Notes: generated from the sequence alone by a model not told the origin. DNA of 64,000 nucleotides from a virus (IMGVR_UViG_3300025015_000001), one strand, 5' to 3'. Counted from the first letter of the stretch, positions 2,938 to 45,841 are shown. Program-made: numbers and translations.

Positions 2938-3825
2938 ATGGCTTGGCTAGATTACTTATCACAATTTGGTTCATTAGGTAGTGGGGATGGTCAATTTGCT
3001 GGATGGGGCTATCCTCAAATATATGTGAAAGGTCCCCTTCTTTATGTAGCAGACCAGAATAACAGTAGAATACAAATATTTAATACTGATACTAATGCTT
3101 TTATTGCAAAGTTTAATGCTGAGTGGCCAACTGCTGTCACAGTAGATGATTCTAGAATTTATGTCGTAGGTTTAGTTAGTTCAGTTGACCGTATTTTAAT
3201 TTTTGATAAAGTTACATATGCACTAATAGATATATTTGGTACAACTGGTACTGGGGATGGGCAGTTTGCCTATCCGAGTGGTATAGCAGTTGACAATAAC
3301 TATATATATGTATCTGATACGAATAATGGAAGAATTCAAATATTTGATAAAATAACTTATGTTTTTGTAGATAAATTTGGTTCCTTCGGGGCAGGGGATG
3401 GGCAATTCTCTGATTGTTGGAGTCTTGCTATTGATGATAATTATCTATATGTAGCCGATGTCCAGAATTATCGTATTCAGATATTTGATAAAATAACTTA
3501 TGCTTTTGTAGGTAAATTTGGCTCATTTGGAGCTGGAGATGGTCAGTTCTATGAGGCATATGGAATAGCAGTTGACAATAACTACATATATGCAGCAGAT
3601 GCATTTAATTATAGAATTCAGATATTTAATAAAACTACATATGCATACATTGCACAAACAGGTTCTTTTGGATCTGGAAATGGACAATTTACTGACCCAT
3701 ATGGGATTGCAATAACTCCCAGTAAGATTTTTGTATTTGATGATGGAAATCATAGGATACAAGTGTTTGATGGGGCATCAGTCCCTACTGCGCCGTCAAA
3801 TTTAAGATTGGTTCGTGGATTATAA
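2938..3825 (+). CDS. NHL-repeat six-bladed beta-propeller protein
   Basis: Repeated FGS.G.GDGQF..P.GIAVD...IYV.D..N.RIQIF; ATG 2938 follows TGGAG (track start 2926 is GTG). Confidence 0.9.
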   Translation: MAWLDYLSQFGSLGSGDGQFAGWGYPQIYVKGPLLYVADQNNSRIQIFNTDTNAFIAKFNAEWPTAVTVDDSRIYVVGLVSSVDRILIFDKVTYALIDIFGTTGTGDGQFAYPSGIAVDNNYIYVSDTNNGRIQIFDKITYVFVDKFGSFGAGDGQFSDCWSLAIDDNYLYVADVQNYRIQIFDKITYAFVGKFGSFGAGDGQFYEAYGIAVDNNYIYAADAFNYRIQIFNKTTYAYIAQTGSFGSGNGQFTDPYGIAITPSKIFVFDDGNHRIQVFDGASVPTAPSNLRLVRGL

Positions 3826-3875
3826 ATTGGGTATTAAATATAATCTGATTTATTTTATCTACCGTGAGGGTGATA

Positions 3876-4391
3876 ATGAAGATACTATCAATTTGGGGAC
3901 ATACTGAACGCCCGTGGGGTTATGAAGTTAGAGCTGAATTACAGGACACTGAGGGGAATATCTTTAGTGAAGTTTTAGCATTCCCTGAAGCGCCAACTCA
4001 AATAGAGATTGATGCTGCTGTTGCAGAACGGCAGACCCTCGTCTCTACACGTTCTGAACTAACTCAGTCACAGGGACAAGAAGTACAAGTAGCCCCCATT
4101 AGTGCACAAATTGAGGCATCAAAGGAAGTTATCAAGATGGTAGTTATGGAGTTCATTTTGCTTCATCCTGCCGCCTCATTTTTAGATATGCAAGAGTACG
4201 TTACAACAACGTATGGATGGCAAGAAGGGATGCTTGCCTCGCGGTTAGTGTACGATTATGCGACAGTAGCAAAGAGCATGGGATTGATAACAATACCAGC
4301 TAATACACCAGAGGAGATGTATATTTCCTTGAGACAGTTTGTTGTGGATACACCATTAGAGCAGATTAAAGCCTTATTAGGGGTGGTATAA
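3876..4391 (+). CDS. Hypothetical protein
   Basis: Clean ORF after GAGG; stop overlaps next ATG. Confidence 0.7.
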   Translation: MKILSIWGHTERPWGYEVRAELQDTEGNIFSEVLAFPEAPTQIEIDAAVAERQTLVSTRSELTQSQGQEVQVAPISAQIEASKEVIKMVVMEFILLHPAASFLDMQEYVTTTYGWQEGMLASRLVYDYATVAKSMGLITIPANTPEEMYISLRQFVVDTPLEQIKALLGVV

Positions 4392-6277
4392 TGGCGGCGT
4401 ATACGTCAACCCAGTCAGGGGATTGGAATAATGTAGCAACATGGGGTGGTGGCGGATATCCATCCATTGCCGGAGATACAGCGACTATAGCCAGTGGGCA
4501 TACAGTGACATATAACGTGTCAAGCGCCATCGAGTTGGGGGACATTTCAATAACAGGAATTTTGTCTTTTTCGACAGCAATGAATACTAAGCTATCGTTG
4601 GGACATAACAATGTAACCGTTAACAATGGCGGGGAATTAAAGATAGGGACAAGTGGCACTCCGTTGGATAAGGCCTATACTGCCGATATACTATTTAATC
4701 CTACCGCTGACAATGTTAAAGGCATCCCCATAACTAATGGAGGTAAACTATCTTTATACGGTGATCCCACAATTTATGGAAATTCAGACAACACAACTCT
4801 AGCCGCGAACTGGTCAGCAGGACAAACCTTTACCATAGCAGGGGACTATACTACGAAATGGATAGTTGGGCAAGAGGTGTATGTCCATAAAGGAGCGTAC
4901 TCCAGTTATCTGACAGATGTCCAAAAGTATACCATTGCAACAATAGTTTTAAATGGTAGCAATACCGATATAACAATCAACGAGGCTGCACCAGGAGTAC
5001 TATTTAAATCCGGGGCACCAGTAATGAACCCAACCAGAAATATTAGAATAGGAAAAGTGGGTGCTTCTACTGCTGTAGGTACTTACAATGGCAATAGACC
5101 CCGAATGTACAACAATAATTTAACATGGGGAAACACAAACGTTAATGTCAGTAATGTATTATTTACAGGTTTGTATGGAATAGAATTAGGGGTATCAGGA
5201 ACCTATAATAATATCTGTTGTAGAAATTCTGAGAATGCTACGGTTAACCTGTCACAGGGACAATCTAAGGGATCTACAGTTTCAGGGCTGTTTATTTATT
5301 GTGCTAAGGGAGTTAATAGCGCAAATGCGATGACTTTTTCTGGGCTGATTTGTGGAAGTTACAGAAGCGGGATAGTTGGTGGTACGTATGCAAATATCTC
5401 AGGGAAAATATTTGGATGTGACCGTGCAATAACTAGCAAAGCAACATTAGGACCTCTTAGTAACTTAGAGATATTCGCGAATAGTACTGCTCTTCTATCT
5501 ACCATAGTAACTTTGGATGAATCGTGCAAGCTCGGCTGGACCGATGCGGTATCTATGCCGAATGTCACAGATATACAGTGGGAGGACGCTTGGGGAAGTT
5601 TAACACAAGTCAGGTTGAGGGGGACTAAACTACCCTCTGGCGGACTAATCCAAGGGAACAAAGGACTAAAAGGACAACAAGGATTTTATGTCATTTCCGA
5701 ACACCACAATCAAACAAAAGATGCACACTATGCTTATCATGGTCAAGGAGATGTGATTAAAAATGATAGCGTTATACGATCTGGTGGGGGTGTAAGTGCT
5801 GTTGAATGTATACCGAATAGTATATGTGCTACTGATGCACCGCTAATTCCGTTTGAGTGGGTAGAAACCGATGTCCTTGCATCTCCTCAAACTCGTTCAA
5901 TATTTCTTAAAGGTGGAGGATGGTCAAGTTGGCCTACAAATACAGAATTGTATTTAGAGGCAGAGTATATCTCTAATGCAACCACATTAAGTAGGAGTAA
6001 AGCTGTCTCGACCGCTGTTTTAACGGACAACGTTACCTGGATTGAATTCCCAGTGACGTTTACTCCAGCGACAGTCGGTGATGTAGTTTATCGGGTATAT
6101 CTGAAAAAGTACCAAGCAGCATCTAAAATATATATAGATACCATGCTGAACCGGCAAAGCATGGATTCAAAAAAAGCCAGTTGGGTCAAGGGAGAGAGTA
6201 CTTTAGTAACAGATCAAACTGTAGGCGGGAAATATGACAAGTTTGCCAAGAGGGGGATAAGAAGAATCTATGGCTAA
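4391..6277 (+). CDS. G8-like domain / beta-helix virion protein (possible spike or adhesin)
   Basis: N-terminal SGDW...TWGGG.YP..GD.ATI..GHTVTY (G8-like), followed by beta-helix-like repeats. Confidence 0.55.
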   Translation: MAAYTSTQSGDWNNVATWGGGGYPSIAGDTATIASGHTVTYNVSSAIELGDISITGILSFSTAMNTKLSLGHNNVTVNNGGELKIGTSGTPLDKAYTADILFNPTADNVKGIPITNGGKLSLYGDPTIYGNSDNTTLAANWSAGQTFTIAGDYTTKWIVGQEVYVHKGAYSSYLTDVQKYTIATIVLNGSNTDITINEAAPGVLFKSGAPVMNPTRNIRIGKVGASTAVGTYNGNRPRMYNNNLTWGNTNVNVSNVLFTGLYGIELGVSGTYNNICCRNSENATVNLSQGQSKGSTVSGLFIYCAKGVNSANAMTFSGLICGSYRSGIVGGTYANISGKIFGCDRAITSKATLGPLSNLEIFANSTALLSTIVTLDESCKLGWTDAVSMPNVTDIQWEDAWGSLTQVRLRGTKLPSGGLIQGNKGLKGQQGFYVISEHHNQTKDAHYAYHGQGDVIKNDSVIRSGGGVSAVECIPNSICATDAPLIPFEWVETDVLASPQTRSIFLKGGGWSSWPTNTELYLEAEYISNATTLSRSKAVSTAVLTDNVTWIEFPVTFTPATVGDVVYRVYLKKYQAASKIYIDTMLNRQSMDSKKASWVKGESTLVTDQTVGGKYDKFAKRGIRRIYG

Positions 6278-7844
6278 AACAATGATAGATCTAGCTGTTA
6301 CTGGAAAAGTAATTGGTGATTTAACATATTCCTGGTGTAAGAAGATGAGCGATAGTTCTACTGTATCTACATCGGGAAGCACTCTTACAGAAAGGGCTAA
6401 CGGGATATATATAATAGATAATCCTAATGTTACCGAAGATACAGATTTTAGAGTATACGTAACAGCTGATAGTTATAAATATGCTGTAGGAATTTTTAGC
6501 CCTGCTGATGGGGATATAGCCCTAGCCAGTGTATGTACAGAGACAAGACTTGCAGAACTTGATGCTGCTAACTTACCAACAGATATTGCCGCGGTAAAAG
6601 GCGATACAGCAGCAATCCTTGATGATACAGGAACAAGCGGGGTAGTTCTTCAGCCAGTAGAAAGAAATTATGGTCATGCGGGAACAGCACAAGCAGGAAG
6701 CTTATCTTCTATTACTCTTGCAGCTACAGCCTCTTCCATAAGCAATATTTTCATCGGGCAGAAAATATCTATTTATGAGGGTACAGGAATTAATCAGACA
6801 AGAGGGGTCTTAAGCTATAACGGGACTTCTAAAGTCCTTGGAGTCGCGCGAAGCTGGGAAGTTGCTCCAGACGCAACCAGTAAATATCGTATTGAGTATG
6901 ATTTCGGACCGAAAGTTGATAGCAGCCTGAATGTGACTACTGGTACAAATTTAGATAAGTCATCTTATGTTTTGGCTTCCGGTAACCACACCGGGGCTGT
7001 AATACCCACAGTTACCGCAATCACCAATGATGTAGGGATTACGCAAACTGGAGCAGATAAAGCATGGAGTACGGCCACAAGAGTGCTCACGGCAGGCACT
7101 AACATAGCCTTGGCTAAAGGAACAGGAGTTACTGGCTTTAACGATATAAGTACCACTGATGTGGCTACAGCAGTATGGAACGCTGCTACAGCTACCTACG
7201 GAACTGCTGGTAGCTATGGATTACTTGTAGAGACTAACCTAGATGCGGCTGTAAGCAGCAGGTCTACTCACAGCGCAGCTGATGTATGGTCTGTGGCCAC
7301 AAGAGTACTCACGGCAGGCACTAACATAGCCTTGGCTAAAGGAACTGGAGTTACTGGCTTTAACGACGTAAGTACCACTGATGTGGCTACAGCAGTATGG
7401 AATGCTGCTACAGCAACTTATGGAACTGCTGGTAGCTATGGATTACTTGTAGAGACTAACCTAGATGCGGCTGTAAGCAGCAGGTCTACTCACAGCGCAG
7501 CTGATGTATGGTCTGTGGCCACAAGAGCAATAACTGATAAGGATAATTTTAGTCTATCCTCTGTTTCAATATCTACTATCGTAGACGAGATATGGGATGA
7601 AAGTACGACCACACATCAGACATCCGGGTCTTTTGGTTACATCGTTAGTCAAAGTGAGAGCACCCAGATAGATGAGATTATTATAATACTTAATGAGATA
7701 AAGGGGGTCGGATGGACTACTGAATCGCTTAAGGCTATCAAGGAATTTGTTGATGATTTAGAGACAAGACTGTCCGCCCAACGTATGGCTAGTATAGATC
7801 AAAAGACTGCTGCAATCCCACCAGCAAATATGGGCAGATTATAG
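6270..7844 (+). CDS. Virion repeat protein with two 74-aa tandem units
   Basis: ATRVLTAGTNIALAKGTGVTGFND...STHSAADVWSV twice; also carries the shared virion beta-domain (see findings). Confidence 0.7.
   Translation: MAKTMIDLAVTGKVIGDLTYSWCKKMSDSSTVSTSGSTLTERANGIYIIDNPNVTEDTDFRVYVTADSYKYAVGIFSPADGDIALASVCTETRLAELDAANLPTDIAAVKGDTAAILDDTGTSGVVLQPVERNYGHAGTAQAGSLSSITLAATASSISNIFIGQKISIYEGTGINQTRGVLSYNGTSKVLGVARSWEVAPDATSKYRIEYDFGPKVDSSLNVTTGTNLDKSSYVLASGNHTGAVIPTVTAITNDVGITQTGADKAWSTATRVLTAGTNIALAKGTGVTGFNDISTTDVATAVWNAATATYGTAGSYGLLVETNLDAAVSSRSTHSAADVWSVATRVLTAGTNIALAKGTGVTGFNDVSTTDVATAVWNAATATYGTAGSYGLLVETNLDAAVSSRSTHSAADVWSVATRAITDKDNFSLSSVSISTIVDEIWDESTTTHQTSGSFGYIVSQSESTQIDEIIIILNEIKGVGWTTESLKAIKEFVDDLETRLSAQRMASIDQKTAAIPPANMGRL
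7074..7524 (+). repeat. 222-bp tandem repeat, 2 full copies plus a fragment
   Basis: gccacaagag at 7074, 7296 and 7518. Confidence 0.95.
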
Positions 7845-7921
7845 TTTAGCTAAAAGTATAAGCTTAACCGTGTATGGTTGGGAACCATAGTAAGATATTA
7901 AATTTATTGGAGGACAAACAA

Positions 7922-8038: not shown

Positions 8039-8074
8039 TAGTTGTGTGATTTTTATATATAATTTGAGGTGAGT

Positions 8075-9256
8075 ATGTCTAATCTAGGAACTACAGAAAA
8101 ATTAATATTCACAATAACTTTTGCTGGCAGTGGTGTAACAGCCCAGATTCCCACAGTAGTTATACAAAAACAAAGTAACTCCTATTTCTTTAACGGCGCA
8201 GGATTTGTTCCAACTTACGTGGAACTAAACATGACTGAGGAAAGTTCTGTCAACTTTCCAGGTAGATATTTTTATAGTTTTAATCAGGCATTAGATAATA
8301 GTATTACAAATGCATCTGAATCATATAGCATAAGATATAAAAATACTGGTGCGTATGCTTTAGTTGTAGATGAAGAATTAAATTTTGGTGCTCCTGTCAC
8401 AGTATCATATACTGCTCAAGCTCAACCGGGGATAGAATTTGTAAGACCGGGATTTCAAAATCCGGAGCAAACTTATATAGTATTAAATGGAAATGAGAAA
8501 AGACTTAAAGCCGCGTTCGTAGATGTAAATTCTGTATACTATGATCCATATGAATTAACATTGCAGGTGTACGATTATGGTAAGACCTTAGTTATAAATG
8601 AAACTATATTACCGCCTTTAGTAGGTACGTATATAAAAAGAGATTCCGCTGGAAATTATTATGTTGATTATACTACTACTATAGCAGGTGATTATGATAT
8701 TGTTTGGAGCTATCGGGACGTAAGTGGCGGCGAGCGGTTCTACGCAAGCTCCTACCTATATAGTATTCCTATACATGTAAATAGTTTATTTCCTTTATTA
8801 AAGAATCAGATAGATAAAGCGCAGAAGGAATTAGGAATTTTCGGGTACACTGACAGTAATCTTTATCTATATTTAAAGGGCGGTTTGTCTGAGATAAATA
8901 GATTCTCGCCAGAAACTTCTTTAAATTTTGTAACTTATCCTTGGCAAGATTATTCTCAATTACTTATAGATGCAGCTAGTATATATTCATTTTTCTCACA
9001 AGGAATTATTTCAATAGATACAGATAGTAATTACAGTCTTCAAGGAAATTCGTTTACTGTCTCACATTGGGAAAAAATTAGCACGCTACTTACAATGATG
9101 AATGATAGAATTAATAAGCAGCTTTACCCATTCAAAATGAAATTCGCGTATAAGGGGTCTGTAAGGGTGGAAAGGGGCGCTGGTTTTAGGCAGCAATCAT
9201 TATTTTCCGCAGCGCCGCCAATGACAAATTTTGGTAATGTTTTGGGTACTCGATAA
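8075..9256 (+). CDS. Putative head-tail adaptor/neck protein with N-terminal Ig/BppU-like domains
   Basis: C-terminal helical part (LLIDAASIYSFFSQG...NYSLQGNSFTV) resembles gp15-type adaptors; inference from pattern and position. Confidence 0.45.
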   Translation: MSNLGTTEKLIFTITFAGSGVTAQIPTVVIQKQSNSYFFNGAGFVPTYVELNMTEESSVNFPGRYFYSFNQALDNSITNASESYSIRYKNTGAYALVVDEELNFGAPVTVSYTAQAQPGIEFVRPGFQNPEQTYIVLNGNEKRLKAAFVDVNSVYYDPYELTLQVYDYGKTLVINETILPPLVGTYIKRDSAGNYYVDYTTTIAGDYDIVWSYRDVSGGERFYASSYLYSIPIHVNSLFPLLKNQIDKAQKELGIFGYTDSNLYLYLKGGLSEINRFSPETSLNFVTYPWQDYSQLLIDAASIYSFFSQGIISIDTDSNYSLQGNSFTVSHWEKISTLLTMMNDRINKQLYPFKMKFAYKGSVRVERGAGFRQQSLFSAAPPMTNFGNVLGTR

Positions 9257-9261
9257 TTATG

Positions 9262-9290
9262 TTGATTTTATTATATTTTTATGTTATACT
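9262..9290 (+). promoter_or_regulatory. Sigma70-type promoter
   Basis: TTGATT-17-TATACT with extended TG; ATG 7 nt after the -10. Confidence 0.7.
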
Positions 9291-9296
9291 CATACT

Positions 9297-11132
9297 ATGC
9301 ATGAAATAAAACTATATACTAAAATTTGTGAACATTGTAAATTAAAATTTACTACAGATAAATACAAAAGACGCTACTGCAGTTATGATTGTGTTATTGC
9401 TCAACGCTTAATCATTAATAAAGAAAAGATAAAACAAAAAGGTTATCTACATAAGCCGTCTAAGAAAATAATTAAAATTTGTAAAAATTGTAACCTAGAA
9501 TTTATTATTAAAAAGGAATCAAAAGATAAACCAAGAAAGTATTGTAGCAGAAAGTGCTCTGCTATAGACGGGGCTAGCATTGTAAGTGAGAAACAAAAGT
9601 TAAATTGGAAAAAAGAAAAAGAATCTGGTGTTAAAAGAAAACCAGTTCGACCTAAACGATTACTAGATTTAGTATGTGAATATTGTAAGTCTGAGTTTAC
9701 TGTACCTTATAAAAGTAGGCATAGAAAATTTTGTTCGCACGAATGCTATTCCAGTAGTAGAAGTTTTGATAGAATAGTAAAATGCGAGTATTGTGGTAAT
9801 GATTTTACTGAGAAATCGTACAAACAGAAGTACTGTTCTATGTCTTGTTCTGGAAAAGCTATAGGGGAAAAGCAAACTGGCGAAAATGCCCCATTTTACG
9901 GGCGAACGCACACAGAAGAAAACAAAAAATTATTCTCTGAAAAAGCTACACAGTACATAGCGCAACATGGTGCGCCTTTTCTTGGTAAAAAACATAGTAT
10001 TGACTCTAGGTTAGCTATGTCATTAACAAAACACAATTTGTCAGTAGAAGATATAGTTGATATAGATTCTTATCTTAAAGAGCACATAGAAGCTAAAGTC
10101 TGTCCAATTTGCAGTGTTGACTTTAATCCTACCAAAAGAATACAAATCTGTTGTGGTAAAGACTGCGATGCTAAAAGAAGAGATTTCTTAAATAGAAAAC
10201 CAAAAGTATGCCGATGGTGTGCTAAAGAATTTTATTCGAATAAAAATGATCAAAAATGTTGTAGTTATCATTGCTATATGAAAAAAAGGATGAGTGACCC
10301 TGCCGAAGTAGAAAAAATTAGACAGTTTATGAAAGGTAGACCATCATTAAATAAAGGATTAAAAATGTCTGCTGAGTGGTGCGAGAAGCATAGACAAAGA
10401 GTAGTAGCACACTATGCGACAGAAGACGGGCAGAAAACCAAAGAACTAATTTCTGAGGCACTTAAAAAATTCTATAAAACTGATATTGGTAAACAACTAA
10501 GAATAATAATTAATAGTAAACTGAGTAAACTTTTCTTAGGAGAACTAAACCCTTTCTACGGCAAAATTCATTCTAAAGAAGTTATTAAAATTTTATCCGA
10601 AAAAGCTTTGGGCAGACCTTCTGCGTTTAAAGGAAAAACCCATTCAGATGAAACAAAGGCCGCTGCGTCTATACGTATGATATTGTATTGTATAGAACAC
10701 GGCAACACAGCAGATAAATTTTCTAAAAAAGGAACATATTTTTCTGAAAAGAATAAGACTACAATTAAGTACGATTCTTCTTATGAATTAACTGCATTTG
10801 AAAAACTGGAACACGATGATAAGGTTATATCATACGAAAAATGTAATTTTTATATTCCGTATAAATTAGATATACAGAGAAACTACTTACCAGATATTAT
10901 AGTAGTATTTAAGGACTCGCCAACCACGGTAATAGAAATTAAGCCAAAGTATAAATTAATACATGAGAAGCCGGAATATAAAGCTAAATTTTTAGCGGCC
11001 CTTACTTATTGTAAACTAAAAAATTGGAAGTTTAGAGTTTGGACAGAATTTCATATTTTCCCGGATGATGATAAGAGATATAAGCAAGCTGTACAAAAAG
11101 TAAAACCAAAGAATTATCTTGCTTTTATCTAA
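9297..11132 (+). CDS. Putative homing endonuclease: 6 CxxC..CS..C Zn fingers, NUMOD3-like motifs, C-terminal TnsA-like PD-(D/E)XK nuclease
   Basis: PFYGRTHTEE, PFYGKIHSKE and FKGKTHSDE motifs; YDSSYE...YLPDII...IEIKP; likely start ATG 9297 (track start 9231 overlaps the upstream gene). Confidence 0.75.
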   Translation: MHEIKLYTKICEHCKLKFTTDKYKRRYCSYDCVIAQRLIINKEKIKQKGYLHKPSKKIIKICKNCNLEFIIKKESKDKPRKYCSRKCSAIDGASIVSEKQKLNWKKEKESGVKRKPVRPKRLLDLVCEYCKSEFTVPYKSRHRKFCSHECYSSSRSFDRIVKCEYCGNDFTEKSYKQKYCSMSCSGKAIGEKQTGENAPFYGRTHTEENKKLFSEKATQYIAQHGAPFLGKKHSIDSRLAMSLTKHNLSVEDIVDIDSYLKEHIEAKVCPICSVDFNPTKRIQICCGKDCDAKRRDFLNRKPKVCRWCAKEFYSNKNDQKCCSYHCYMKKRMSDPAEVEKIRQFMKGRPSLNKGLKMSAEWCEKHRQRVVAHYATEDGQKTKELISEALKKFYKTDIGKQLRIIINSKLSKLFLGELNPFYGKIHSKEVIKILSEKALGRPSAFKGKTHSDETKAAASIRMILYCIEHGNTADKFSKKGTYFSEKNKTTIKYDSSYELTAFEKLEHDDKVISYEKCNFYIPYKLDIQRNYLPDIIVVFKDSPTTVIEIKPKYKLIHEKPEYKAKFLAALTYCKLKNWKFRVWTEFHIFPDDDKRYKQAVQKVKPKNYLAFI

Positions 11133-19115: not shown

Positions 19116-19116
19116 A

Positions 19117-27820: not shown

Positions 27821-27846
27821 TTAACCTTTTATAAAGGAGAGTAAAA

Positions 27847-28299: not shown

Positions 28300-28314
28300 G
28301 GGGTGTAGAACAAT

Positions 28315-29114: not shown

Positions 29115-29120
29115 TAACTT

Positions 29121-31634: not shown

Positions 31635-31652
31635 ACACTCTCCTTTTTTTAC

Positions 31653-31689
31653 TTTTTTAAAAATTTTTAAAATTTATATATGCTATACT
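31653..31689 (+). promoter_or_regulatory. A/T-tract promoter motif, copy 3 (re-start for baseplate genes)
   Basis: TTTTTTAAAAATTTTTAAAATTTATATATGCTATACT. Confidence 0.55.
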
Positions 31690-31697
31690 TCTGTTAT

Positions 31698-31727
31698 AGA
31701 GTACCATAGTAAATATAGTACTGTCAA
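31698..31727 (-). promoter_or_regulatory. Possible leftward promoter for the membrane gene
   Basis: Reverse strand TTGACA-18-TACTCT with extended TG. Confidence 0.45.
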
Positions 31728-31738
31728 GGAATTTTTTA

Positions 31739-32518: not shown

Positions 32519-32523
32519 GAATA

Positions 32524-35539: not shown

Positions 35540-36189
35540 TGTCAGCATTAGCGGAGTGTACAAAAGGATTTATTAATGCACTAACAGCCAGACCACGGCA
35601 GCAATTAAGAGTACTGCTGTCTACAGTAAAGACACTTACTCAAATTGAATTGGCTAGAATTCAAGCTATGCTAGCACAACAGGATGTGTTAGCTAATACG
35701 TTTACCACAGTTATCAGTGGGTTTGAAGAAACACTAAAACCTTTGGAAGAGGCTCTTAATCAAATACCCTTTAAAGAATTTAAAGCATGTGAGTCGGTTT
35801 CTAAATTAGACTTGGATATACAGAACATATATTTTGATAGAAAAAATGAACTAAGGTCTCTTACGTATAAGTATACACAATTTGGGTTTGCAAATACTTA
35901 CTTTGGAGATTACCGTAGCAAGTTAGAAAATCAGCTAGATCAGGTCACAGCCATGCTTAACTATTTAGATAATTTAGCAACCTTTAATTTAGAGCGCGGA
36001 GATGTGGTGCGTGTATACACACAGAATGAAGATTCTAAAGGCAATAAATATCCTGTAACGTTATCGGGACACATTCCTACTGTTGGAGAATACCCAAGTG
36101 CTGTTATTGTCGGGATTAATATTGTTGTGAAATTAGATGATACCGGGGACATAAAACAATTTAAAGGTACTGAGGTACAAAAAACTTAA
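35539..36189 (+). CDS. Hypothetical baseplate-region protein
   Basis: Translationally coupled; coiled-coil N-terminus. Confidence 0.65.
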   Translation: MSALAECTKGFINALTARPRQQLRVLLSTVKTLTQIELARIQAMLAQQDVLANTFTTVISGFEETLKPLEEALNQIPFKEFKACESVSKLDLDIQNIYFDRKNELRSLTYKYTQFGFANTYFGDYRSKLENQLDQVTAMLNYLDNLATFNLERGDVVRVYTQNEDSKGNKYPVTLSGHIPTVGEYPSAVIVGINIVVKLDDTGDIKQFKGTEVQKT

Positions 36190-36962
36190 TGGCGATATAT
36201 TATACAAATAATAGTAAATTAATTCCGGATGGTACACAACTATTTGATTCTAAGTCTATTAAGACTGGGTATGGCTATGATATAGATATTAACTCATCGG
36301 GCGCGATAAGCCGACTTATCGGGCTAGATAAACTTGAGCAACAAGTTCAAAAAGCTGTTATAGTAAAAAAAGGCAGTTATCCGACCGCCAAATCTTTGGG
36401 ATCTAATATTATTAATGCTACTATTAAGGATAAAATTTTTCTGAATGCTGAGATTAGGGAGACACTAGCTACCTACGCTAAACTACAACAACAAACTAGC
36501 ACTTCTTTTTTAAAAGTACTAGGTAAAAATATATACAGGACAATGGATATAACAGACGCCTCTTCTTGGAGAAAAATAAATTCTCATATTATCTCTTCTA
36601 ATACTTATACAGATAGTAATCTAATACCTAGCATATTTTATTATTATGCAGTAACTACTGTGTACAGGGATACTCTTGGGAACACATCAGAAACTAATAT
36701 AGATAAGTACGAGAACATTATTGCTAGCACCGTCAACTCTCTTCAGGCTAAAGTTAATGATACTTTTGTACTAGTTAGTGGAAATAAGTCAGCTATTTTG
36801 TATTGGAGCATCCCAGTGAAGTTAAATGAGGAAGAGCAATTAAGGAGTATTATAGACATTATACTTACACAATTTGGGGATCCTAGGGGATTAAACATAA
36901 AAATAAAAGTCACAAATAAAAGTATGACACAATCACAAATTAACTTATTGAAAACAAGATAA
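36189..36962 (+). CDS. gp25/gp46-like baseplate wedge protein with FN3-like insertion
   Basis: GYDIDI...GLDKLEQQVQK at the N-terminus; DPRGLNIKIKV at the C-terminus; directly before the J-like gene. Confidence 0.65.
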   Translation: MAIYYTNNSKLIPDGTQLFDSKSIKTGYGYDIDINSSGAISRLIGLDKLEQQVQKAVIVKKGSYPTAKSLGSNIINATIKDKIFLNAEIRETLATYAKLQQQTSTSFLKVLGKNIYRTMDITDASSWRKINSHIISSNTYTDSNLIPSIFYYYAVTTVYRDTLGNTSETNIDKYENIIASTVNSLQAKVNDTFVLVSGNKSAILYWSIPVKLNEEEQLRSIIDIILTQFGDPRGLNIKIKVTNKSMTQSQINLLKTR

Positions 36963-36975
36963 TACTGAGGTATCC

Positions 36976-38676
36976 ATGGCAACTAACATACTAACTACTA
37001 GTGATATACTTAACTACATAAAATCTTTCATTAAAGCTAAAAATCCTCAGATAGATGTGCAAACTGGGACTGACATTTATGATCTGATTTTTGGAGGTAA
37101 TGCACAGACCTCTGCTAGAATCTTTGAATCTATACAAGAGGTGGAAAATCTACAAAGTGTTTTTACTACATTTGGCAGCAGTTTGGATACAGTATCTAGG
37201 AACTATAGTCTAGTAAGAAAACCAGCCACAGTAAGTTTAGGATATGTTATATTTTACACCACAACTTGGACAACTGATATAATTATACCAGAGGGTACTG
37301 TACTTAGCACTAAGAATACTGTAGGACTTCCGAACGTCACTTTCAGAACTATAGGAGACATTTCTCTATTATTCAGCAATAAATCTGCATATTTTAATTC
37401 TACTACCGGACGATATGAGTCTACAGCTATCCCCATAGCATGTACCATTCCGGGTAAGGTGGGTAACGTAGATATGGGAACTGTTACCACTCTCCAGACG
37501 AATATTCCACAAATAGAAGGTATTACAAATAATGATGCTATAAGTGGTGGAACTGATGAGGAGACAGATGTCGATTTGCAACAAAGGTGTGCTCTATCCT
37601 TAGTAGTGTCTTCTGTAGGAACACAAGATGGTTATAAAAAGTTAATACTAGATAACGAAGTAGTTAAAGACGTATATGCTGTTGGGCCTTTTGATACGGA
37701 ATCAGTAAGGTCCGGGGTTGATATATATGCGCTCACGGTTTCAGCCCCTGTAACGTACACGCAAACCAATACATATGGGGGGGCTAATTTTACAGAGTTA
37801 ATCAACCAGCCAGTACTAGATATTAATAGTGTAATAGCATATGGTACATGGAGTATGTTAGAAAATGTTTCTTATCAATTTAATAAGCAAGCACAATCGG
37901 CTTATGCAAACTCGACTATATCAGATTCCACAGTAGCTAGAATAGATTGGGTTCCTTCATGGGCTGGGGTAACTTTAATAGGCTCTATAGGAGGTGACAC
38001 ATTTACCTATGCTGTATCTGGTGGGGAAATTAGTGTAACTTCTGCTGATGCATATGTAAACACACGAGTAACTATGACTCTTGGGAGCAACAATCCGGGG
38101 GAGACGCAGACTGTTTTAACTTATAGCTATAATACTACATCTAATATTGTGACTTTTACAACTACCCCCTTCACTAACGCAATTAATGCAGGAGACCCAT
38201 TTACGTTAGACCCAAGACCAAATATAGGAGATTCAGTAAGTATAAATTATAATTATAATCCAGACATTGCAGTATTACAGGATTTTGTAGAACAATCACA
38301 ATATAATGTTGTAGGGGCTAATACATTAGTTAAAAATGGACTACGTGGAAAGTTGGCACTAACCCTATCTATTAAAGTATTTAGTGGCTATGATTTCGTA
38401 GCTGCTAAAACAAAAGTAGAGGGGGCGGTGTCACAGTACATAAATAACTTAAAATTTGGAGATGATATACAGACATCAGATATTATTGTTACCGCACAGA
38501 CTGGAATAGGTACTGATTATGTTATAACAGAAGTAGACTACGTGTCCGTAGACACTTTATCAAGTAGTACTTTTTTTGAACATTGGGATGAGACTATAGA
38601 TGATTTTTCTGCTGTTGACATAATAACACTCTCTAATAGAGAGTATGCGATTTTAAAAACTTTAACTATTAATTAA
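36976..38676 (+). CDS. Baseplate J-like wedge protein
   Basis: LDTV..NYSLVRKPAT, GKVGNV, GGTDEETD.DL..R, GTQDGY motifs. Confidence 0.88.
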   Translation: MATNILTTSDILNYIKSFIKAKNPQIDVQTGTDIYDLIFGGNAQTSARIFESIQEVENLQSVFTTFGSSLDTVSRNYSLVRKPATVSLGYVIFYTTTWTTDIIIPEGTVLSTKNTVGLPNVTFRTIGDISLLFSNKSAYFNSTTGRYESTAIPIACTIPGKVGNVDMGTVTTLQTNIPQIEGITNNDAISGGTDEETDVDLQQRCALSLVVSSVGTQDGYKKLILDNEVVKDVYAVGPFDTESVRSGVDIYALTVSAPVTYTQTNTYGGANFTELINQPVLDINSVIAYGTWSMLENVSYQFNKQAQSAYANSTISDSTVARIDWVPSWAGVTLIGSIGGDTFTYAVSGGEISVTSADAYVNTRVTMTLGSNNPGETQTVLTYSYNTTSNIVTFTTTPFTNAINAGDPFTLDPRPNIGDSVSINYNYNPDIAVLQDFVEQSQYNVVGANTLVKNGLRGKLALTLSIKVFSGYDFVAAKTKVEGAVSQYINNLKFGDDIQTSDIIVTAQTGIGTDYVITEVDYVSVDTLSSSTFFEHWDETIDDFSAVDIITLSNREYAILKTLTIN

Positions 38677-38689
38677 TTTGGGGGATGGC

Positions 38690-39811
38690 ATGGCAGATTT
38701 ACCTGCAGTAGGAGGAAGTAATAACACATGGGGACAAGAGCTTAACGATTTTATGTCTATTGCACACGAATCAGCCGGTGCCAATGGCGGTAAACTTAAA
38801 ACATCTGCATTAAATGGAATATCTTTTACAGGCACTATTAACCTAAATAGCGCTACAGCAGCCAACCTCCCAGCTAACACCAATGTTGGGACTGTTTTAG
38901 CAGCCGAATTAAGTTATCTATCTGGGGTTACATCTGGTATACAAGGACAACTAAGTGGTAAGTCAAGTACTACACATACACATGCTGTATCTGCTGGAGC
39001 TATTGATGTGACTGCAACAGCCGCAGAATTAAACATTTTGGATGGTGTAATAGCCACCACTGCAGAAATAAATTATTCTTCTGGGGTTACATCTGGTATA
39101 CAAGGACAATTAAGTGGTAAGGCGAGTACCACACATACACACGCTGTATCCGCCGGAGCTACTGATGTGACTGCAACAGCTGCAGAGTTAAACATTTTGG
39201 ATGGTGTAACAGCTACCACTGCAGAAATAAATTATTCTTCTGGGGTTACATCTGGTATACAAGGACAATTAAGCAGTAAGATAGCTATATCAGGGACAGT
39301 TACACAAGCTAACCTTACAACATTAACTGCCGGAAGTGGTAGCATTGCAGATAGCTTACACGGGCATTCTATATCTATAACTAATGCCGATACAGTGGAC
39401 AGTTACCATGCCTCGGATTTACTTGCAAGAGGCAACCATACAGGAACCCAGAATGGGTCAACTATATCAGGAGGGACGTTAGGGAGTACAGTCGTGCCTC
39501 TGGCGAGGATGGGGACTGCGGTGGCGAGTGGGAGCCAGACAGTTAATGCAGATACAGCATATGGGATAACTATTAGCGGTAGTAGTGGGGCGGCGCATGA
39601 GTTCTATCATTATTCTGCATATTTAAGTAGTTCCCCTACGTCTGACATCATAACGTATGGTGCTAGAGTCACAGAAACAGAAACTGTTAATGCTTCTGTG
39701 CATTTTACTCTAACAAGGCGGGCAGATGTAGGAACGATAATTGACATTATCAACGGCTATGGGGCGAGTAAAACTATAGAATATAAAGTCTACAAACTCA
39801 CAGAATCTTAA
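38690..39811 (+). CDS. Tail fibre protein with 53-aa repeats
   Basis: ATAAELNILDG and THTH motifs. Confidence 0.7.
   Translation: MADLPAVGGSNNTWGQELNDFMSIAHESAGANGGKLKTSALNGISFTGTINLNSATAANLPANTNVGTVLAAELSYLSGVTSGIQGQLSGKSSTTHTHAVSAGAIDVTATAAELNILDGVIATTAEINYSSGVTSGIQGQLSGKASTTHTHAVSAGATDVTATAAELNILDGVTATTAEINYSSGVTSGIQGQLSSKIAISGTVTQANLTTLTAGSGSIADSLHGHSISITNADTVDSYHASDLLARGNHTGTQNGSTISGGTLGSTVVPLARMGTAVASGSQTVNADTAYGITISGSSGAAHEFYHYSAYLSSSPTSDIITYGARVTETETVNASVHFTLTRRADVGTIIDIINGYGASKTIEYKVYKLTES
38921..39275 (+). repeat. 159-bp tandem repeat, about 2.2 copies
   Basis: tctggggttacatctggtatacaaggacaa at 38921, 39080 and 39239. Confidence 0.95.
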
Positions 39812-39822
39812 AGGAGAGCTCA

Positions 39823-40257: not shown

Positions 40258-40296
40258 TATTAAGTATTTTCCACTTTATTAAAAATAGGATAAATA

Positions 40297-41361
40297 ATGC
40301 CCTTAGATCTAACATTCGACCCCAGTGCCAGTGCAGCCATACTAGGAATAGCAACACAAAGTGATGGGAAGATTTTAGTTTGTGGAGGTTTTTCTACCAT
40401 AGGTGGGCACACTAAGAATGGCCTAGCTCGTTTAAATTTAGATGGTACAGTTGATACTGGATTCACGGCTACATTGCCGGATTTTACTTCGGGAATAGTC
40501 ATCCAGCCAGACAACAAAATTATTGTACGTATTGCTAATGCTAGCATACAAAAATTAAATTACAATGGCACTTCTGATAGTACTTTTTCTATTCCTACCA
40601 TGAATGATTATATATTATCCTTAAACCTACAAAGTGATGGGGCATTATTTGTTGGTGGGGCTTTCACCACTGTTAATGGTAATCCGCAAAGTAGAGTAGT
40701 TAAGTTAAATATAGATGGCACAGTAGACACGTCCTTCAATGTTTCTATAAATTCTTGGGTAAGAAATACTATTACACAATCGGATGGAAATATACTAATA
40801 GGGGGTTCATTCAGTACCGTAAATGGAATAACAAGAAATGGCATGGCCAGGGTATATCCAGACGGAAGTTTGGATATGACATTTGATCCTAACATATTAG
40901 GCACAGTTTATTCAATAATCGTAGAACCAAACGGTGATATGATAGTAGGGGGTAATTTTGCTTCTGTGGGTAATGAGAGCAGAAATAATATGGCTAAACT
41001 TACTTCTATGGGGACATTAGACATGTCATTTAACCCAAATGTTTCAGGTGATATATTAGTTATAACTAAGCAAGTGGATGAAAAAATTTTAATGGGTGGG
41101 TTAATACAGTCAGTTAATACTGTACCACGTAACTATATTGCTAGGATACATTCAAATGGTACATTAGATACATCTTTCAATCCAAACGCTAATAATCAAG
41201 TATACTCTATAGGTGTTCAATCAAATAATGATATCCTTATAGGTGGAAATTTTACTGTAATTAACAGTGTATTACGTAATTATATAGCAAGATGGACAGA
41301 GACAATTAACCTAATTGCGCCAACTAATTTAGTCGCACAATGCGGGATTTACGCTGTTTAA
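40297..41361 (+). CDS. Delta-60-repeat beta-propeller protein
   Basis: Repeated QSDGKIL.GG.F....G..RN..ARL..DG.LD.SF. Confidence 0.9.
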   Translation: MPLDLTFDPSASAAILGIATQSDGKILVCGGFSTIGGHTKNGLARLNLDGTVDTGFTATLPDFTSGIVIQPDNKIIVRIANASIQKLNYNGTSDSTFSIPTMNDYILSLNLQSDGALFVGGAFTTVNGNPQSRVVKLNIDGTVDTSFNVSINSWVRNTITQSDGNILIGGSFSTVNGITRNGMARVYPDGSLDMTFDPNILGTVYSIIVEPNGDMIVGGNFASVGNESRNNMAKLTSMGTLDMSFNPNVSGDILVITKQVDEKILMGGLIQSVNTVPRNYIARIHSNGTLDTSFNPNANNQVYSIGVQSNNDILIGGNFTVINSVLRNYIARWTETINLIAPTNLVAQCGIYAV

Positions 41362-41374
41362 AATAGGGGAATAA

Positions 41375-42724
41375 ATGAGTTTAGATGCAACCTTTATACC
41401 AGATGTAAACAGTTACACTCAGGCAATAGCAGTACAAACAGATGGTAAAATATTAATAGCCGGTGAGTTTACTGTTGTAAATTCTGTTTCTAAAGTGTGT
41501 ATAGCAAGGTTAAATTCAGATGGGTCATTAGATACTTCTTTTTCTGCGTTGCTTTCTTACGGAGTTAATTCTATAGTGATACAGTCAGATGGTAGAATTC
41601 TGGTAGGGGGGAGGTTCACGACCGTTAATGGAGTAACTAGGTATTATCTTGCCAGGCTTACCTCTACAGGTGCAACGGATAATACATTTACTGGTTATAC
41701 TAATGGGTATGTGCACTCAATAATAGTTCAACCAGACAATAAAATATTAATTGGCGGAGAATTTACCACAGTTAACGGTGTAGTAAAAAATCATATAGCA
41801 AGACTAACCTCAACAGGTAGTTTAGACACGTCTTTCACTGCGGACGCAGATAGATCTGTGCATGCTATGTATATACAGTCGGACGGGAAGTTACTAATCG
41901 GAGGAAAATTTAACACAGTAAATGGTACTACTAAGCACTACATAGCTAGACTTACTTCTAATGGTGGGTTAGATAATTCTTTTGCTGTAACATCGATTAA
42001 TGGGTATGTTTATACTATTGAAGCATACCCAAATAATAGATTTATACTAGGTGGTACTTTTACACAAGTGGATAATACTGCACAGCAATGTGTTACTAGA
42101 GTACACTCAAATGGTAACTTAGACACAGAATTTAATAATGTTGGTGTGGGGGCCCTTTTTGGGTATGCGTGGCCAACAGCTGTATATGATGCTGTAGTTC
42201 AGCTCAGTGGTAAAGTTATATTTGTTGGTAGTTTTAATTCAATAGGAACAACACGAAGAAACTATATTGCTAGAATCACCCCCGATGGTATTTTAGACCC
42301 TGATTTTAATCCAGATTTAAATTGGCCAGGGAGCGTACTGCTTACACAGACAGACGGTAAATTACTAATTGGCGGAAAATTTAATATCGTTAATGGGGAG
42401 ACGAGAACTTATATAGCAAGATGGGTGGATAGTGAGACAGCTTCTGGTCCTAATACAATTGTTCTTACTTGGCAGGATAACAATATAGGAGAGGATGGTT
42501 CTAGGATAGAGCAAAGTATTAATGGTATTGATTTTACTCAGATAGCCACTGTAGGGCCAGGTACAACTTCTTATGTCATCACTGGGGTTGGCAGTGGGCA
42601 AGAACGGTGGTTTAGGGTAAGAGCCTACCAGGGGGAGGATAATAGCAGCTATAGCAACATAGTTTATATACAGTGTAGCTGGATCGTCAGCCCGACTGGC
42701 TTAAAACTCATCCGGGGAAGCTAA
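41375..42724 (+). CDS. Delta-60-repeat propeller plus C-terminal FN3 domain
   Basis: Same repeats; LTWQDN..GEDG.RIE...FRVRAY...SSYSN. Confidence 0.9.
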   Translation: MSLDATFIPDVNSYTQAIAVQTDGKILIAGEFTVVNSVSKVCIARLNSDGSLDTSFSALLSYGVNSIVIQSDGRILVGGRFTTVNGVTRYYLARLTSTGATDNTFTGYTNGYVHSIIVQPDNKILIGGEFTTVNGVVKNHIARLTSTGSLDTSFTADADRSVHAMYIQSDGKLLIGGKFNTVNGTTKHYIARLTSNGGLDNSFAVTSINGYVYTIEAYPNNRFILGGTFTQVDNTAQQCVTRVHSNGNLDTEFNNVGVGALFGYAWPTAVYDAVVQLSGKVIFVGSFNSIGTTRRNYIARITPDGILDPDFNPDLNWPGSVLLTQTDGKLLIGGKFNIVNGETRTYIARWVDSETASGPNTIVLTWQDNNIGEDGSRIEQSINGIDFTQIATVGPGTTSYVITGVGSGQERWFRVRAYQGEDNSSYSNIVYIQCSWIVSPTGLKLIRGS

Positions 42725-42772
42725 ATTAAGGTTAATATGATATATCTAGTAACTATTAAAGGAATATATTAA

Positions 42773-43780
42773 ATGTCTACTTATGGATCAGGTGTATATG
42801 GAAGTGGTACGTATAGCTTAGGAGAATCTATTGCTATAAGTAGAATCCGGATATTTAAATCTATTAATGATAAAGTAACCAACTTTCAAGTACTAGCAGA
42901 TAAGGAAAGAATATTATTATATTGGGATCCTATTAGTAGAAGTATACCATTCAAAGCTTTAGCTGTGGATGGTAATGACATACACCTATCTACTATAGTA
43001 GATGTGGGTGATAGTACATATCCGTATGATACGTTTACTGTAGCGGCTTCTGCTGGAGTAAGTAGTATAGACGACATATACAATAATAGTAATATTATAT
43101 TTTTTACTGGTATGAATTTTGGGTCTCCACCAAAGAAAATAAAAGATTACGCAGGAAGTAGTAGAACATTTACTACTGATAAATTAGAGTTCCCTATTGC
43201 TACCGGAGACAGGTTTGGTTTGGTGGAGAGCATGGGGTTAATTGATGACTCTTTGATGTATGTCGGTAGTACTATAACTTATACAGATAGTGAGCATACT
43301 CTTACTAACTATGATAGCAGCACAAAAACCTTTACTGTATCTGGTGGGTTAACACTACTCCCCGGAGAAAATTTCGTATTAACAAATGCATACTATCCTA
43401 AACTATATATTAGCAAGAATAAAGGTGAGACCTTTGATGTTAGTGCACATTTAACTTATATGGTGTCTGCGCTCCCAACGGGAACTTTACTAGAGAGTAA
43501 CTATTATTACAATTCTTTTAGAGACGAAAATTCTACATTGCTAAATATTACTGATCCTGTATTTTATATAGGGTCAGTAATAACATTTATTACTGGGGTT
43601 AACAAAGGCTTGTCAAGGACAGTAAGAAATTTTGATATGAATACAAGAGAATTCACCACGGATTATTTTCCTAATATCATAGAAATAGGAGATGTCTTTT
43701 CGGTAAACACATTCAGTTTGCCTTTGGTTAGTGATATTGAGAATTACTTGTTTAAAATGATACTTACTAACGGAATTTAA
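42773..43780 (+). CDS. Virion protein with repeated shared beta-domains
   Basis: Two clear and one degenerate copy of Y.G..I.F.TG.N.G..R....Y.....FT....GD.F. Confidence 0.6.
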   Translation: MSTYGSGVYGSGTYSLGESIAISRIRIFKSINDKVTNFQVLADKERILLYWDPISRSIPFKALAVDGNDIHLSTIVDVGDSTYPYDTFTVAASAGVSSIDDIYNNSNIIFFTGMNFGSPPKKIKDYAGSSRTFTTDKLEFPIATGDRFGLVESMGLIDDSLMYVGSTITYTDSEHTLTNYDSSTKTFTVSGGLTLLPGENFVLTNAYYPKLYISKNKGETFDVSAHLTYMVSALPTGTLLESNYYYNSFRDENSTLLNITDPVFYIGSVITFITGVNKGLSRTVRNFDMNTREFTTDYFPNIIEIGDVFSVNTFSLPLVSDIENYLFKMILTNGI

Positions 43781-43810
43781 CTACTACTAAACGTAGTGCA
43801 GCAGGGGGAT

Positions 43811-45841
43811 ATGGCGACTCACAGTGTTATACTAGTATGGCAAGATAATTCTCTCGATGAGGATGGATTTAAAATTGAGAAGAGCTCTGATGGTGTATCA
43901 TGGGTGCAAATAGACACAGTAGCCCCCAGTGTAAATACATATACCGCTACCGGTATAATAGATGGGGAACCTATTTATTTTAGAGTAAAAGCATTTAATA
44001 CGGGAGGAGATTCTGGTTATTCTAATGTTGCGTCCGCCACTTTTACATGGCAACCTATACTTGGCACTGAGACTGTAACCTACCCAGCAGTAAGCACACA
44101 GAATTATCTTACTACACTTAATAATGGTTATTGGGATACTAATCTAAATACAAATGTGTACAGTTTGGTGCATAGTGTTACAAAAGAAGGGCATGCTAGA
44201 GCTGAGATAGAGGTAAAAGATCAAGTTTCTGATTTTGGGATAGAGACAGTTAGAGATATAAAACTTTATAATAACTTTGGTATAAACTTTGGTTTTGAAA
44301 AAAATACAAATACTTCTTATATACGATACAGAAAAAGTATTATGGATTTAATTTCTGGATTTAGAAACACAGGAACCACAGAGGGATTATATAATATTGT
44401 AAGAGCATTTTATAGGATTACCCCACAAATTGAATCGTTAGCACAAACTGGGTGGAGGTACGGGAGAAATAGGTTAGGTTACGCACAATCAGCGCAGTCA
44501 TTAACTGTTACTGCGGTACCGATTGGGCCAGAGAGATATTATACTTTTACTACATCTTCATCTGGGTTGGATGTGGATCACACTGGTGATTATATAGCAT
44601 TTGTATCTGTTCCAACTGGGGTTGTGTTTAATCAATCATTGTATGGTGAGATGTTTTCTGTTATAAACTATAGTACTAGTGGTGGTAATGCAACATTTAC
44701 TATTGAATCTATTGACTATGAAATACCTGTAGGTGCAGTAGTACAATTATTTAATACAGATACATCTACCAATTTTAATACATCACCACACAGCACATTA
44801 TCATATACATTTGGGGCTAGAGTAACAGTGCACGGGCCATACTTAGATGATACTGATAAAACATCATTTGAAACATTGTTACGTAAGTTTATGCCACTTC
44901 ATGTAGACTATATAACAACCTATCAACCTATTGTCTTAGGAGAATCTTCATGGGATAAGTGGATGGGGGATAAGACTAATCTGGAGGTCAATTATGAGAC
45001 TAACACTTTAGTACCAGTAGTTGATAGCTTATTAGAATATAGTAGACTTTCAGATAATTTTAACAGTACAGTAACCACTGTAGTTAGTGGTGACTATGTT
45101 TTTACTGGGGATAATATCACTACTAAGTACAATTATTATAAGAATAAAGATATCCTATTTTTAACAGGAAATAACGCCGGAATAAGCAAGAGAGTACTGA
45201 GCTACTTGGGTGGAGAAAAACAGTTCACAACTGACTCATTCCCATATACAATAATGCCAGGAGATATATTTAGGGTAGAACATATAGCGTATCAAACAAA
45301 GTATGTCACACCATTAATTAATATACAACCAGTTGAATTAGGGATAAATTTGACTAATTCTCTATACACTTTTGGGTGGTTTACTAGAAAGTTGGATCCT
45401 GCTATAGAGGAATATCTATATATAGAATCTAGTGATGATGGAGTCATATACACACTTCCCAGAAGAGTACAGCAGAATGAAAGGTTGAACACGACAGTAG
45501 ATGGTACTGTAACTGTAGGAATTGGTTCCTACCCATATAATACATTTACTATTTCTGCAAGTGGTTTAAATCACTTAAGTAATATTGATGATTATTATGC
45601 GGGAAGTTATTTAAAATTTACTACTGGAGTAAATGCAAGTTATTACGAAAAAATATTATCATATGATGCGACTACTAAGGTAGTAGTAACAGATACGTTT
45701 AGTTCTCTTATAGATACTGGAGATAATTTTACAATTATAACAACAGATATTAAGCAATATGTTCGAGTAACTGCATATCACAATAAATTAAAAAATAAAA
45801 ATGATATAGAGATAGAGAGTATTGTTATTAAAGTTATTTAA
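43811..45841 (+). CDS. Baseplate wedge (tail protein I-like) with N-terminal FN3
   Basis: VWQDNSLDEDGFKIEKS FN3; YRKSI...TGTTEGL..IV and FMPLHV wedge-like motifs. Confidence 0.6.
   Translation: MATHSVILVWQDNSLDEDGFKIEKSSDGVSWVQIDTVAPSVNTYTATGIIDGEPIYFRVKAFNTGGDSGYSNVASATFTWQPILGTETVTYPAVSTQNYLTTLNNGYWDTNLNTNVYSLVHSVTKEGHARAEIEVKDQVSDFGIETVRDIKLYNNFGINFGFEKNTNTSYIRYRKSIMDLISGFRNTGTTEGLYNIVRAFYRITPQIESLAQTGWRYGRNRLGYAQSAQSLTVTAVPIGPERYYTFTTSSSGLDVDHTGDYIAFVSVPTGVVFNQSLYGEMFSVINYSTSGGNATFTIESIDYEIPVGAVVQLFNTDTSTNFNTSPHSTLSYTFGARVTVHGPYLDDTDKTSFETLLRKFMPLHVDYITTYQPIVLGESSWDKWMGDKTNLEVNYETNTLVPVVDSLLEYSRLSDNFNSTVTTVVSGDYVFTGDNITTKYNYYKNKDILFLTGNNAGISKRVLSYLGGEKQFTTDSFPYTIMPGDIFRVEHIAYQTKYVTPLINIQPVELGINLTNSLYTFGWFTRKLDPAIEEYLYIESSDDGVIYTLPRRVQQNERLNTTVDGTVTVGIGSYPYNTFTISASGLNHLSNIDDYYAGSYLKFTTGVNASYYEKILSYDATTKVVVTDTFSSLIDTGDNFTIITTDIKQYVRVTAYHNKLKNKNDIEIESIVIKVI

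Follow-up and report, generated by a model that had tools for sequence, protein, structure and literature searches.

Orphan FN3 first strands on phage propeller proteins and an FN3 domain that lacks one: a candidate case of strand complementation on a phage fibre

In a 64,000-nucleotide stretch (hereafter the window) of IMGVR_UViG_3300025015_000001, an uncultured groundwater phage, three propeller proteins (NHL, p6 and p7) end in an isolated first strand (strand A) of an FN3 domain, and a fibre protein of the same phage, p9, opens with an FN3 domain that runs only from strand B onward. We consider it plausible, if short of probable, that the propeller tails complement the p9 FN3 in trans. In the proposed mechanism, the p9 FN3, with strands B to G and no canonical strand A, would form an open socket on the fibre. 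This socket would have been inserted, in this phage alone, at the junction of a fibre gene whose counterpart in relatives encodes a single chain. The donors would be the NHL, p7 and probably p6 propellers, which would lack any other attachment element and carry a free FN3 strand A at their ends. A tail would enter the p9 FN3 alongside its strand B, in antiparallel orientation, with two Leu residues of the tail buried in the sandwich core; one domain would thereby be rebuilt from two chains, and a propeller head would be fixed to the fibre. This proposal is favoured because the tails are rare and well placed, because those of NHL and p7 share a motif, because NHL and p6 have no other attachment element, because the p9 FN3 and the propellers co-occur in this lineage, because the predicted docking geometry is canonical, and because a precedent exists in phage Tuc2009.

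Propeller proteins with orphan A strands

The anatomy of these sequences is observed directly. The five strings quoted in an earlier sequence-only reading of the window are all present where it placed them: the three tails (Table 1), the start of the p7 FN3 (42416-42481) and that of the p9 FN3 (43811-43852). For comparison, a reference set of ~940 domains of the nearest FN3 family was taken from the best database matches. Ahead of the strand-B Trp, the consensus of this family is P-A-A-P-S-N-L-T-A-T-A-V-S-S-T-Q-I-N-L-T-W. A strand-A scoring matrix was built from 930 canonical A strands and scanned over 60,979 13-mers from phage open reading frames (ORFs) of at least 100 amino acids. The tails of NHL and p6 rank second and sixth among the 60,979 (scores in Table 1), and the first rank, with 20.3 bits, is taken by the tail of a further protein of this phage, ORF X, which is encoded outside the window. 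All three lie no more than five residues from the stop codon. The p7 tail scores just 0.6 bits; in phmmer alignments, it pairs with strand A of the next domain of tandem FN3 proteins (query positions up to 104-107).

Such endings are rare. A full A strand follows none of the 34 C-terminal FN3 domains taken from ordinary multi-FN3 proteins, whose chains stop a few residues past strand G; in the baseline set, complete N-terminal FN3 domains behind signal peptides retain strand A. Because of the matrix ranks and this baseline, the NHL, p6 and p7 tails are taken, on sequence grounds, to be real and unusual orphan FN3 first strands, and the suggestion that three proteins end in an isolated A strand is borne out, for NHL and p6 by the matrix and for p7 by the alignments. 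This phage encodes both halves of a possible split domain: an FN3 strand A closely before a stop codon, and an FN3 running from strand B onward. The NHL and p6 proteins consist of a propeller and a tail only: NHL has no N-terminal anchor domain, and neither protein has another attachment element. Among the matches to the last 60 residues of NHL, no tail-bearing homologue was found.

The NHL and p7 tails have more in common than strand-A character. Both follow the pattern P-[ST]-x-L-[RK]-L-[VI]-R-G-x-stop, with the stop at the same position, and the domains that precede it are unrelated (a blade of the NHL propeller versus strand G of the p7 FN3). The motif L-[RK]-[LIV]-[LIV]-[RK]-G occurs in 0 of 936 ordinary A strands. 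In these strands, the single-position frequencies are 2.5% for Arg/Lys at -13, 3.4% for Leu at -12, 1.5% for Arg/Lys at -10 and 1.9% for Gly at -9, and 10.9% for the fifth motif position. Five residues are identical in the two tails, two of them written with different codons. Because the motif is absent from all 936 ordinary strands and follows unrelated domains, the tails of NHL and p7 appear, from their sequences, to be a specialised, related element and not two random stubs.

ORF X (122 amino acids; positions 10159-10527 of the virus record, minus strand; L016:1163-1528:-) has a signal peptide, an FN3 domain from strand B onward, and a C-terminal orphan strand A with part of strand B. The neighbouring ORF Y (record positions 9806-10195, minus strand, also in L016) has a lipoprotein-type signal peptide and an FN3 that has its N-terminal strand; its ATG overlaps the stop codon of ORF X.

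FN3 domains of p9 and p7 as candidate acceptors

The p9 FN3 scores 16.5-21.9 bits against the Pfam fn3 profile (PF00041; cut-off 25), and the match begins at profile position 12/13, leaving positions 1-11 unmatched. Only 5-9 residues stand ahead of strand B. From these two observations, a canonical strand A is absent from p9.

The p7 FN3 has no Pfam fn3 match at an E value of 0.01 or better. A phmmer search with this domain returned 14,989 proteins at an E value of 0.001 or better, with tandem FN3 proteins on top, and the homology begins at strand B. The fold itself is well predicted: the AlphaFold2 model has a predicted local distance difference test (pLDDT) value of 83, and Foldseek matches it to solved FN3 domains with a probability of 1.00 and a template modelling (TM) score of ~0.6-0.7, PDB entries 5fm5 and 5fm4 standing at ranks 3-4. 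The segment ahead of strand B is harder to classify. From the ARW of p7 to the Trp of strand B, the chain is as long as the canonical stretch from strand A to strand B, so the residues for a first strand are present; the segment scores -14 bits on the strand-A matrix and is not A-like. In the AlphaFold2 model, ARWVDS forms a short strand that extends the last propeller strand, with a pLDDT of 55-59. Full-length p7 was folded on a propeller-only alignment, MAFFT having put propeller homologues on the FN3 columns, and its FN3 part is accordingly of low confidence. Seven strands including strand A are thus not found in the single chain of p9, and p7 has the residues and a low-confidence strand only. 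The sequence-only reading had described two FN3 domains without a first strand; this description holds for p9 and is only arguable for p7.

The p7 tail has no defined structure in the monomer model and does not fold back on its own domain. The N- and C-termini of an FN3 domain lie at opposite poles. Completion of the p7 FN3 in cis by its own tail was considered and is unlikely, given a linker of ~5-7 residues and the unstructured tail of the monomer model.

Predicted docking of the p7 tail on the p9 FN3

Residues 1-96 of p9 were co-folded with the p7 FN3 plus tail, using alignments of 31 FN3 units each that were cut from four loci. The co-fold score is 0.78, compared with 0.00 for the best of three controls. 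The mark applied here is reached by 58 of 80 solved complexes and by 2 of 110 mismatched pairs, counts that are only rough in this case owing to the custom alignments. Three runs agree in at least 92% of contacts, and the partner pLDDT is at least 77. On the p7 side, the predicted interface comprises residues 435-449 (96-110 in the numbering of the tool), and on the p9 side residues 9-22 and 62-85. In the model, Leu443, Leu445 and Ile446 of p7 run antiparallel to residues 11-16 of p9 and contact Phe62, Val64 and Ala79, which is the canonical position of strand A. Binding itself is suggested by this one co-fold. The sequence-only reading had proposed that each tail be modelled with each truncated FN3; the one pair that was run passed, with the tail in the strand-A position.

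A fibre gene split at the FN3 domain

In five homologues (899-1180 amino acids, 38-49% identity), p8 and p9 are one chain, and no FN3 is found at the junction. In the window, the junction consists of an in-frame TAA, 15 nucleotides, a GTG and an FN3 from strand B onward; p7, p8 and p9 all share one reading frame. The TAA of p8 (43778) is kept across independent assemblies, which rules out a sequencing error at this stop. In one independent assembly, the ATG at 43811 is ATT, and for this reason the GTG at 43796 is the likelier start of p9. This GTG has no Shine-Dalgarno sequence, and translation from it is probably coupled to termination of p8. The in-frame residues of the gap, LLLNVVQQ, score -15.6 bits on the strand-A matrix, and their reading as a decayed strand A is unsupported.

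The relatives with a fused fibre gene lack both the FN3 and the Delta-60 propeller genes. In one of them (L014), whose DNA was read, the fused fibre gene comes immediately after baseplate J, and no gene for a Delta-60 protein was found; in the contig of P0122, for which the gene table was used, one gene of 277 amino acids lies between baseplate J and the fused fibre gene, and no gene has a Delta-60 match. The FN3 in p9 and the propeller genes are found together in this lineage only. Scans of IMG/VR with p7, p9 and baseplate J returned only distant loci, none with the FN3 or the tails, and a DNA search of the phage collection gave no match to 40297-45841. Homologues that would carry the same split, for which the sequence-only reading had looked to other phages, were therefore not recovered: the relatives found have fused fibres without an FN3 at the junction. 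The homologue search with whole p7 was dominated by bacterial Delta-60 proteins, and the representative search with the p7 FN3 and tail was led by giant tandem FN3 proteins, which served to set the alignment limits and the baseline. Because the population is clonal (loci 99.97-100% identical) and no other lineage found has the layout, selection on the tails is not measurable from variants.

Another IMG/VR phage encodes a tail-fibre protein of 1106 amino acids (L010:4276-7596) with a seven-blade Delta-60-like propeller within the fibre chain. From this example, such propellers serve as phage fibre modules.

Weighing strand complementation against other readings

Several points weigh against strand complementation. 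The tails of p6 and ORF X, unlike those of NHL and p7, continue from a canonical strand A into a few strand-B-like residues ahead of the stop, and in this they resemble truncated domains. In a variant of ORF X (P0159), Trp is read in place of the stop, which lengthens the protein by nine residues. The p7 FN3 may supply its own first strand, as ARWVDS does in the AlphaFold2 model. The arrangement occurs in no lineage found besides this clonal population. As the distal half of a split fibre gene, p9 is itself left without an explained anchor on the virion. We infer the presence of NHL, p6 and p7 in the virion, as well as which tail goes where, virion membership being an assumption. Finally, the co-fold is in silico and covers one of six tail-acceptor pairs, and its pass is ambiguous because a split FN3 resembles a tandem FN3 whose chain has been cut: similarity to solved tandem FN3 structures may account for the pass, and a vestigial strand would dock equally well in silico.

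The main rival explanation, which we consider unlikely, holds that the tails are vestiges of FN3 domains cut by the insertion or replacement of neighbouring genes, that only stubs of about one strand were tolerated, and that nothing docks in trans; the "truncated" FN3 domains would fold well enough alone, p7 with its own segment and p9 without an edge strand. In agreement with this explanation, the p6 tail departs from the p7 FN3 directly past the loop Gly and then enters the p7 ribosome-binding region, and the ORF X tail extends partway into strand B, has a stop that overlaps the start of the next gene and is read through in the variant. The p9 FN3 stems from a fibre gene split by a TAA and has non-coding residues at the place of strand A, AlphaFold2 gives p7 an internal first strand, and the layout is conserved in no relative. 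Left unexplained, however, are the NHL/p7 motif, absent from all 936 ordinary strands and ending at the same stop residue after unrelated domains; the presence here of stubs that are found on 0 of 34 ordinary C-terminal FN3 domains; and the gathering of three to four stubs and two strand-poor FN3 domains in one phage. If the tails are vestigial, the locus still records the splitting of a fibre gene and cuts of an FN3 cassette at the A-B loop.

Strand insertion might instead cross the boundary between phage and host, the phage tails plugging into strand-less FN3 anchors of the host, or the p9 FN3 capturing host proteins with an orphan FN3 strand at their end; the process would then be one of adsorption and not of assembly. 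The origin of the phage in groundwater metagenomes and its secreted FN3 of the same shifted register (ORF X) are consistent with this idea, which is nevertheless improbable: the tail and the socket of the phage fit each other in the co-fold. Were it true, the open p9 FN3 or the tagged propellers would act directly on host surface proteins.

About as improbable is completion of the p9 FN3 in cis, in which the TAA at 43778 would be read through or bypassed to give a p8-p9 fusion with the linker in the strand-A slot, the separate p9 being a by-product. The shared frame of p8 and p9, their 15-nucleotide spacing, their single chain in relatives and the GTG start without a Shine-Dalgarno sequence would all fit. 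Against this stand the lack of a suppressor tRNA (only two tRNA genes, Thr-TGT and Gln-TTG, were found in the whole genome), the rank of TAA as the commonest stop of the phage (89 TAA, 30 TAG and 28 TGA in ORFs of at least 150 codons) and the strand-A score of the gap residues given above; the three tails would also be left unaddressed. Least probable of all is that strand insertion is the receptor-binding step itself, with parts compatible with an orphan-strand docking system of the groundwater host.

The sequence-only reading had envisaged interchangeable propellers that clip onto the baseplate by beta-strand complementation. Complementation in trans keeps the support of the p7 tail/p9 co-fold, the NHL/p7 motif and the lack of another attachment element on NHL and p6, and is weakened by the possible self-filling of the p7 slot, the run of the p6 tail into strand B and the confinement of the split to one lineage. 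Attachment to the baseplate was not borne out, as p9 corresponds to the distal half of a fibre that relatives encode in a single fused gene. If trans complementation does occur, the NHL head and two Delta-60 receptor-binding heads would be carried on one fibre by means of a 13-residue strand and a small common domain. This would be a compact, swappable means of host-range change and a natural counterpart to engineered split-domain tags, and it would justify a fresh look at the many proteins of phages and bacteria whose last element is an "unfinished" FN3 strand.

Genomic setting

The complete virus record is 194,269 bp long and has direct terminal repeats; the window corresponds to its positions 130270-194269, read on the minus strand. 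The phage recurs near-identical across many groundwater metagenome assemblies. Contractile tail and baseplate genes, including the sheath and baseplate J/wedge, are found at 26195-38676 of the window. The order 3' of baseplate J is a 377-amino acid protein, a 144-amino acid protein, p6, p7, p8, p9 and a further fibre protein (p7 as a whole gene, 41375-42724; p9, 43796-45841). The donor genes are not directly upstream of the acceptor genes, and the NHL gene belongs to another group of fibre-like genes, located close to the end of the genome. The coordinates of the features under study are collected in Table 1.

Table 1. Positions in the window of the candidate donor and acceptor elements and of the genes that carry them.
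Feature	Position	Strand	Evidence
NHL six-blade propeller protein, 299 amino acids (alternative ATG at 2938)	2926..3825	+	Pfam NHL 2e-23; phrog_22523
NHL C-terminal orphan strand A, VPTAPSNLRLVRGL then stop	3781..3822	+	Strand-A matrix 15.7 bits, rank 2
p6, Delta-60 (DUF5122) propeller protein, 354 amino acids	40297..41361	+	Pfam PF17164 1.2e-66
p6 C-terminal tail: canonical strand A, a few strand-B-like residues, stop	41311..41358	+	Strand-A matrix 12.3 bits, rank 6
p7 seven-blade Delta-60 propeller, residues 1-348	41375..42418	+	Pfam 4.9e-78; AlphaFold2 pLDDT 93-98
p7 FN3 domain, residues 349-436; N-terminal segment VDSETAS not A-like	42419..42682	+	AlphaFold2 pLDDT 83, predicted TM score (pTM) 0.72; Foldseek probability 1.00
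p7 C-terminal tail IVSPTGLKLIRGS, candidate donor strand	42683..42721	+	Unstructured in monomer; strand A of p9 FN3 in co-fold
p8, proximal half of fibre protein (one ORF in relatives)	42773..43780	+	Aligns with N-terminal parts of P0122-P0126
In-frame TAA of p8 and 15-nucleotide gap before the p9 GTG start	43778..43795	+	TAA kept in independent assemblies
p9 N-terminal FN3 without canonical strand A, candidate acceptor	43796..44050	+	Pfam fn3 profile positions 12/13-83 only
Rest of p9, distal fibre part, BR0599-like repeats	44051..45841	+	38-49% identity to C-terminal parts of P0122-P0126

The fibre-like group around NHL (window 1-7844) also includes a protein with a DTPxSYxG fibre motif (796-1506), a 428-amino acid protein (1523-2809) and a G8-domain protein (4391-6277). 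A 633-amino acid protein with NUMOD3 motifs and a TnsA-like endonuclease N-terminal domain (9231-11132) is probably a mobile nuclease. In the 377-amino acid protein that follows baseplate J, an internal direct repeat of ~159 nucleotides with 91% identity (38903-39280) is visible as secondary BLAST alignments. A 7.9-kb metagenome contig (L024) is a perfect inverted duplication of the p6-p7 region and is most likely an assembly artefact.

Comparison with known systems

In the literature on donor-strand or strand complementation with phage tails and FN3 or Ig-like domains, no description of a system of this kind was found. The general principle is familiar from chaperone-usher pili, whose subunits have an incomplete Ig-like fold that receives its missing strand in trans from another chain (PMC9046445). 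What those subunits lack is the C-terminal G strand; an N-terminal extension takes its place, and the process depends on a periplasmic chaperone together with an usher (PMC9046445). Here, in contrast, the missing strand is N-terminal and the candidate donors are C-terminal. No chaperone or usher family was matched in the scanned proteins.

By topology, the closest systems would be the type V pili of Bacteroidota (FimA and Mfa1), in which a beta-sandwich without its N-terminal strand has the slot filled by the C-terminal strand of another subunit (PMC13655056, PMC8512630), as it is here in a model only. Proteolytic cleavage of a lipoprotein precursor is what opens the slot in these pili, whose subunits form a filament by polymerisation (PMC13655056, PMC8512630). 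Unlike in those pili, the strand is absent from the gene in this phage, the fold is FN3, and neither a protease nor a polymer is evident; no signal peptide is seen in the translated p6, p7, p9 and NHL. The mechanism would represent a variation on donor-strand complementation. As the defining features of the chaperone-usher and type V families are absent or unexamined, the phage system belongs to neither.

A joint comparable to the one proposed here is seen between the My4-linker of myomesin and Ig3 of obscurin-like-1, where a segment after an FN3 enters the partner's incomplete Ig domain as a beta-strand and forms a mechanically strong joint (PMC5222588). The PDB entries 5fm5 and 5fm4, noted above among the Foldseek matches of the p7 FN3, belong to this complex. 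That complex differs in belonging to the eukaryotic sarcomere, in its I-set Ig acceptor and in its donor, which is an interdomain linker rather than a C-terminal tail (PMC5222588).

Among phages, the closest system appears to be the composite Ig-like domain of Lactococcus phage Tuc2009. In the solved structure of its baseplate tripod, the C-terminal hairpin of BppU completes the beta-sheet of BppA to give a titin-like composite domain, which holds an accessory carbohydrate-binding protein (PMC4742702). The parts have no sequence relation to those of the phage studied here, and the arrangement differs: in Tuc2009, a 25-residue hairpin leads from the structural BppU to the accessory protein, whereas here single strands of 13-16 residues are found on the accessory heads and the FN3 socket would be on the fibre. 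In the solved Tuc2009 complex, a C-terminal extension completes a beta-sheet in the Ig-like domain of a partner within an adhesion device (PMC4742702); here, a comparable completion is predicted by the co-fold, for proteins that are presumed virion components.

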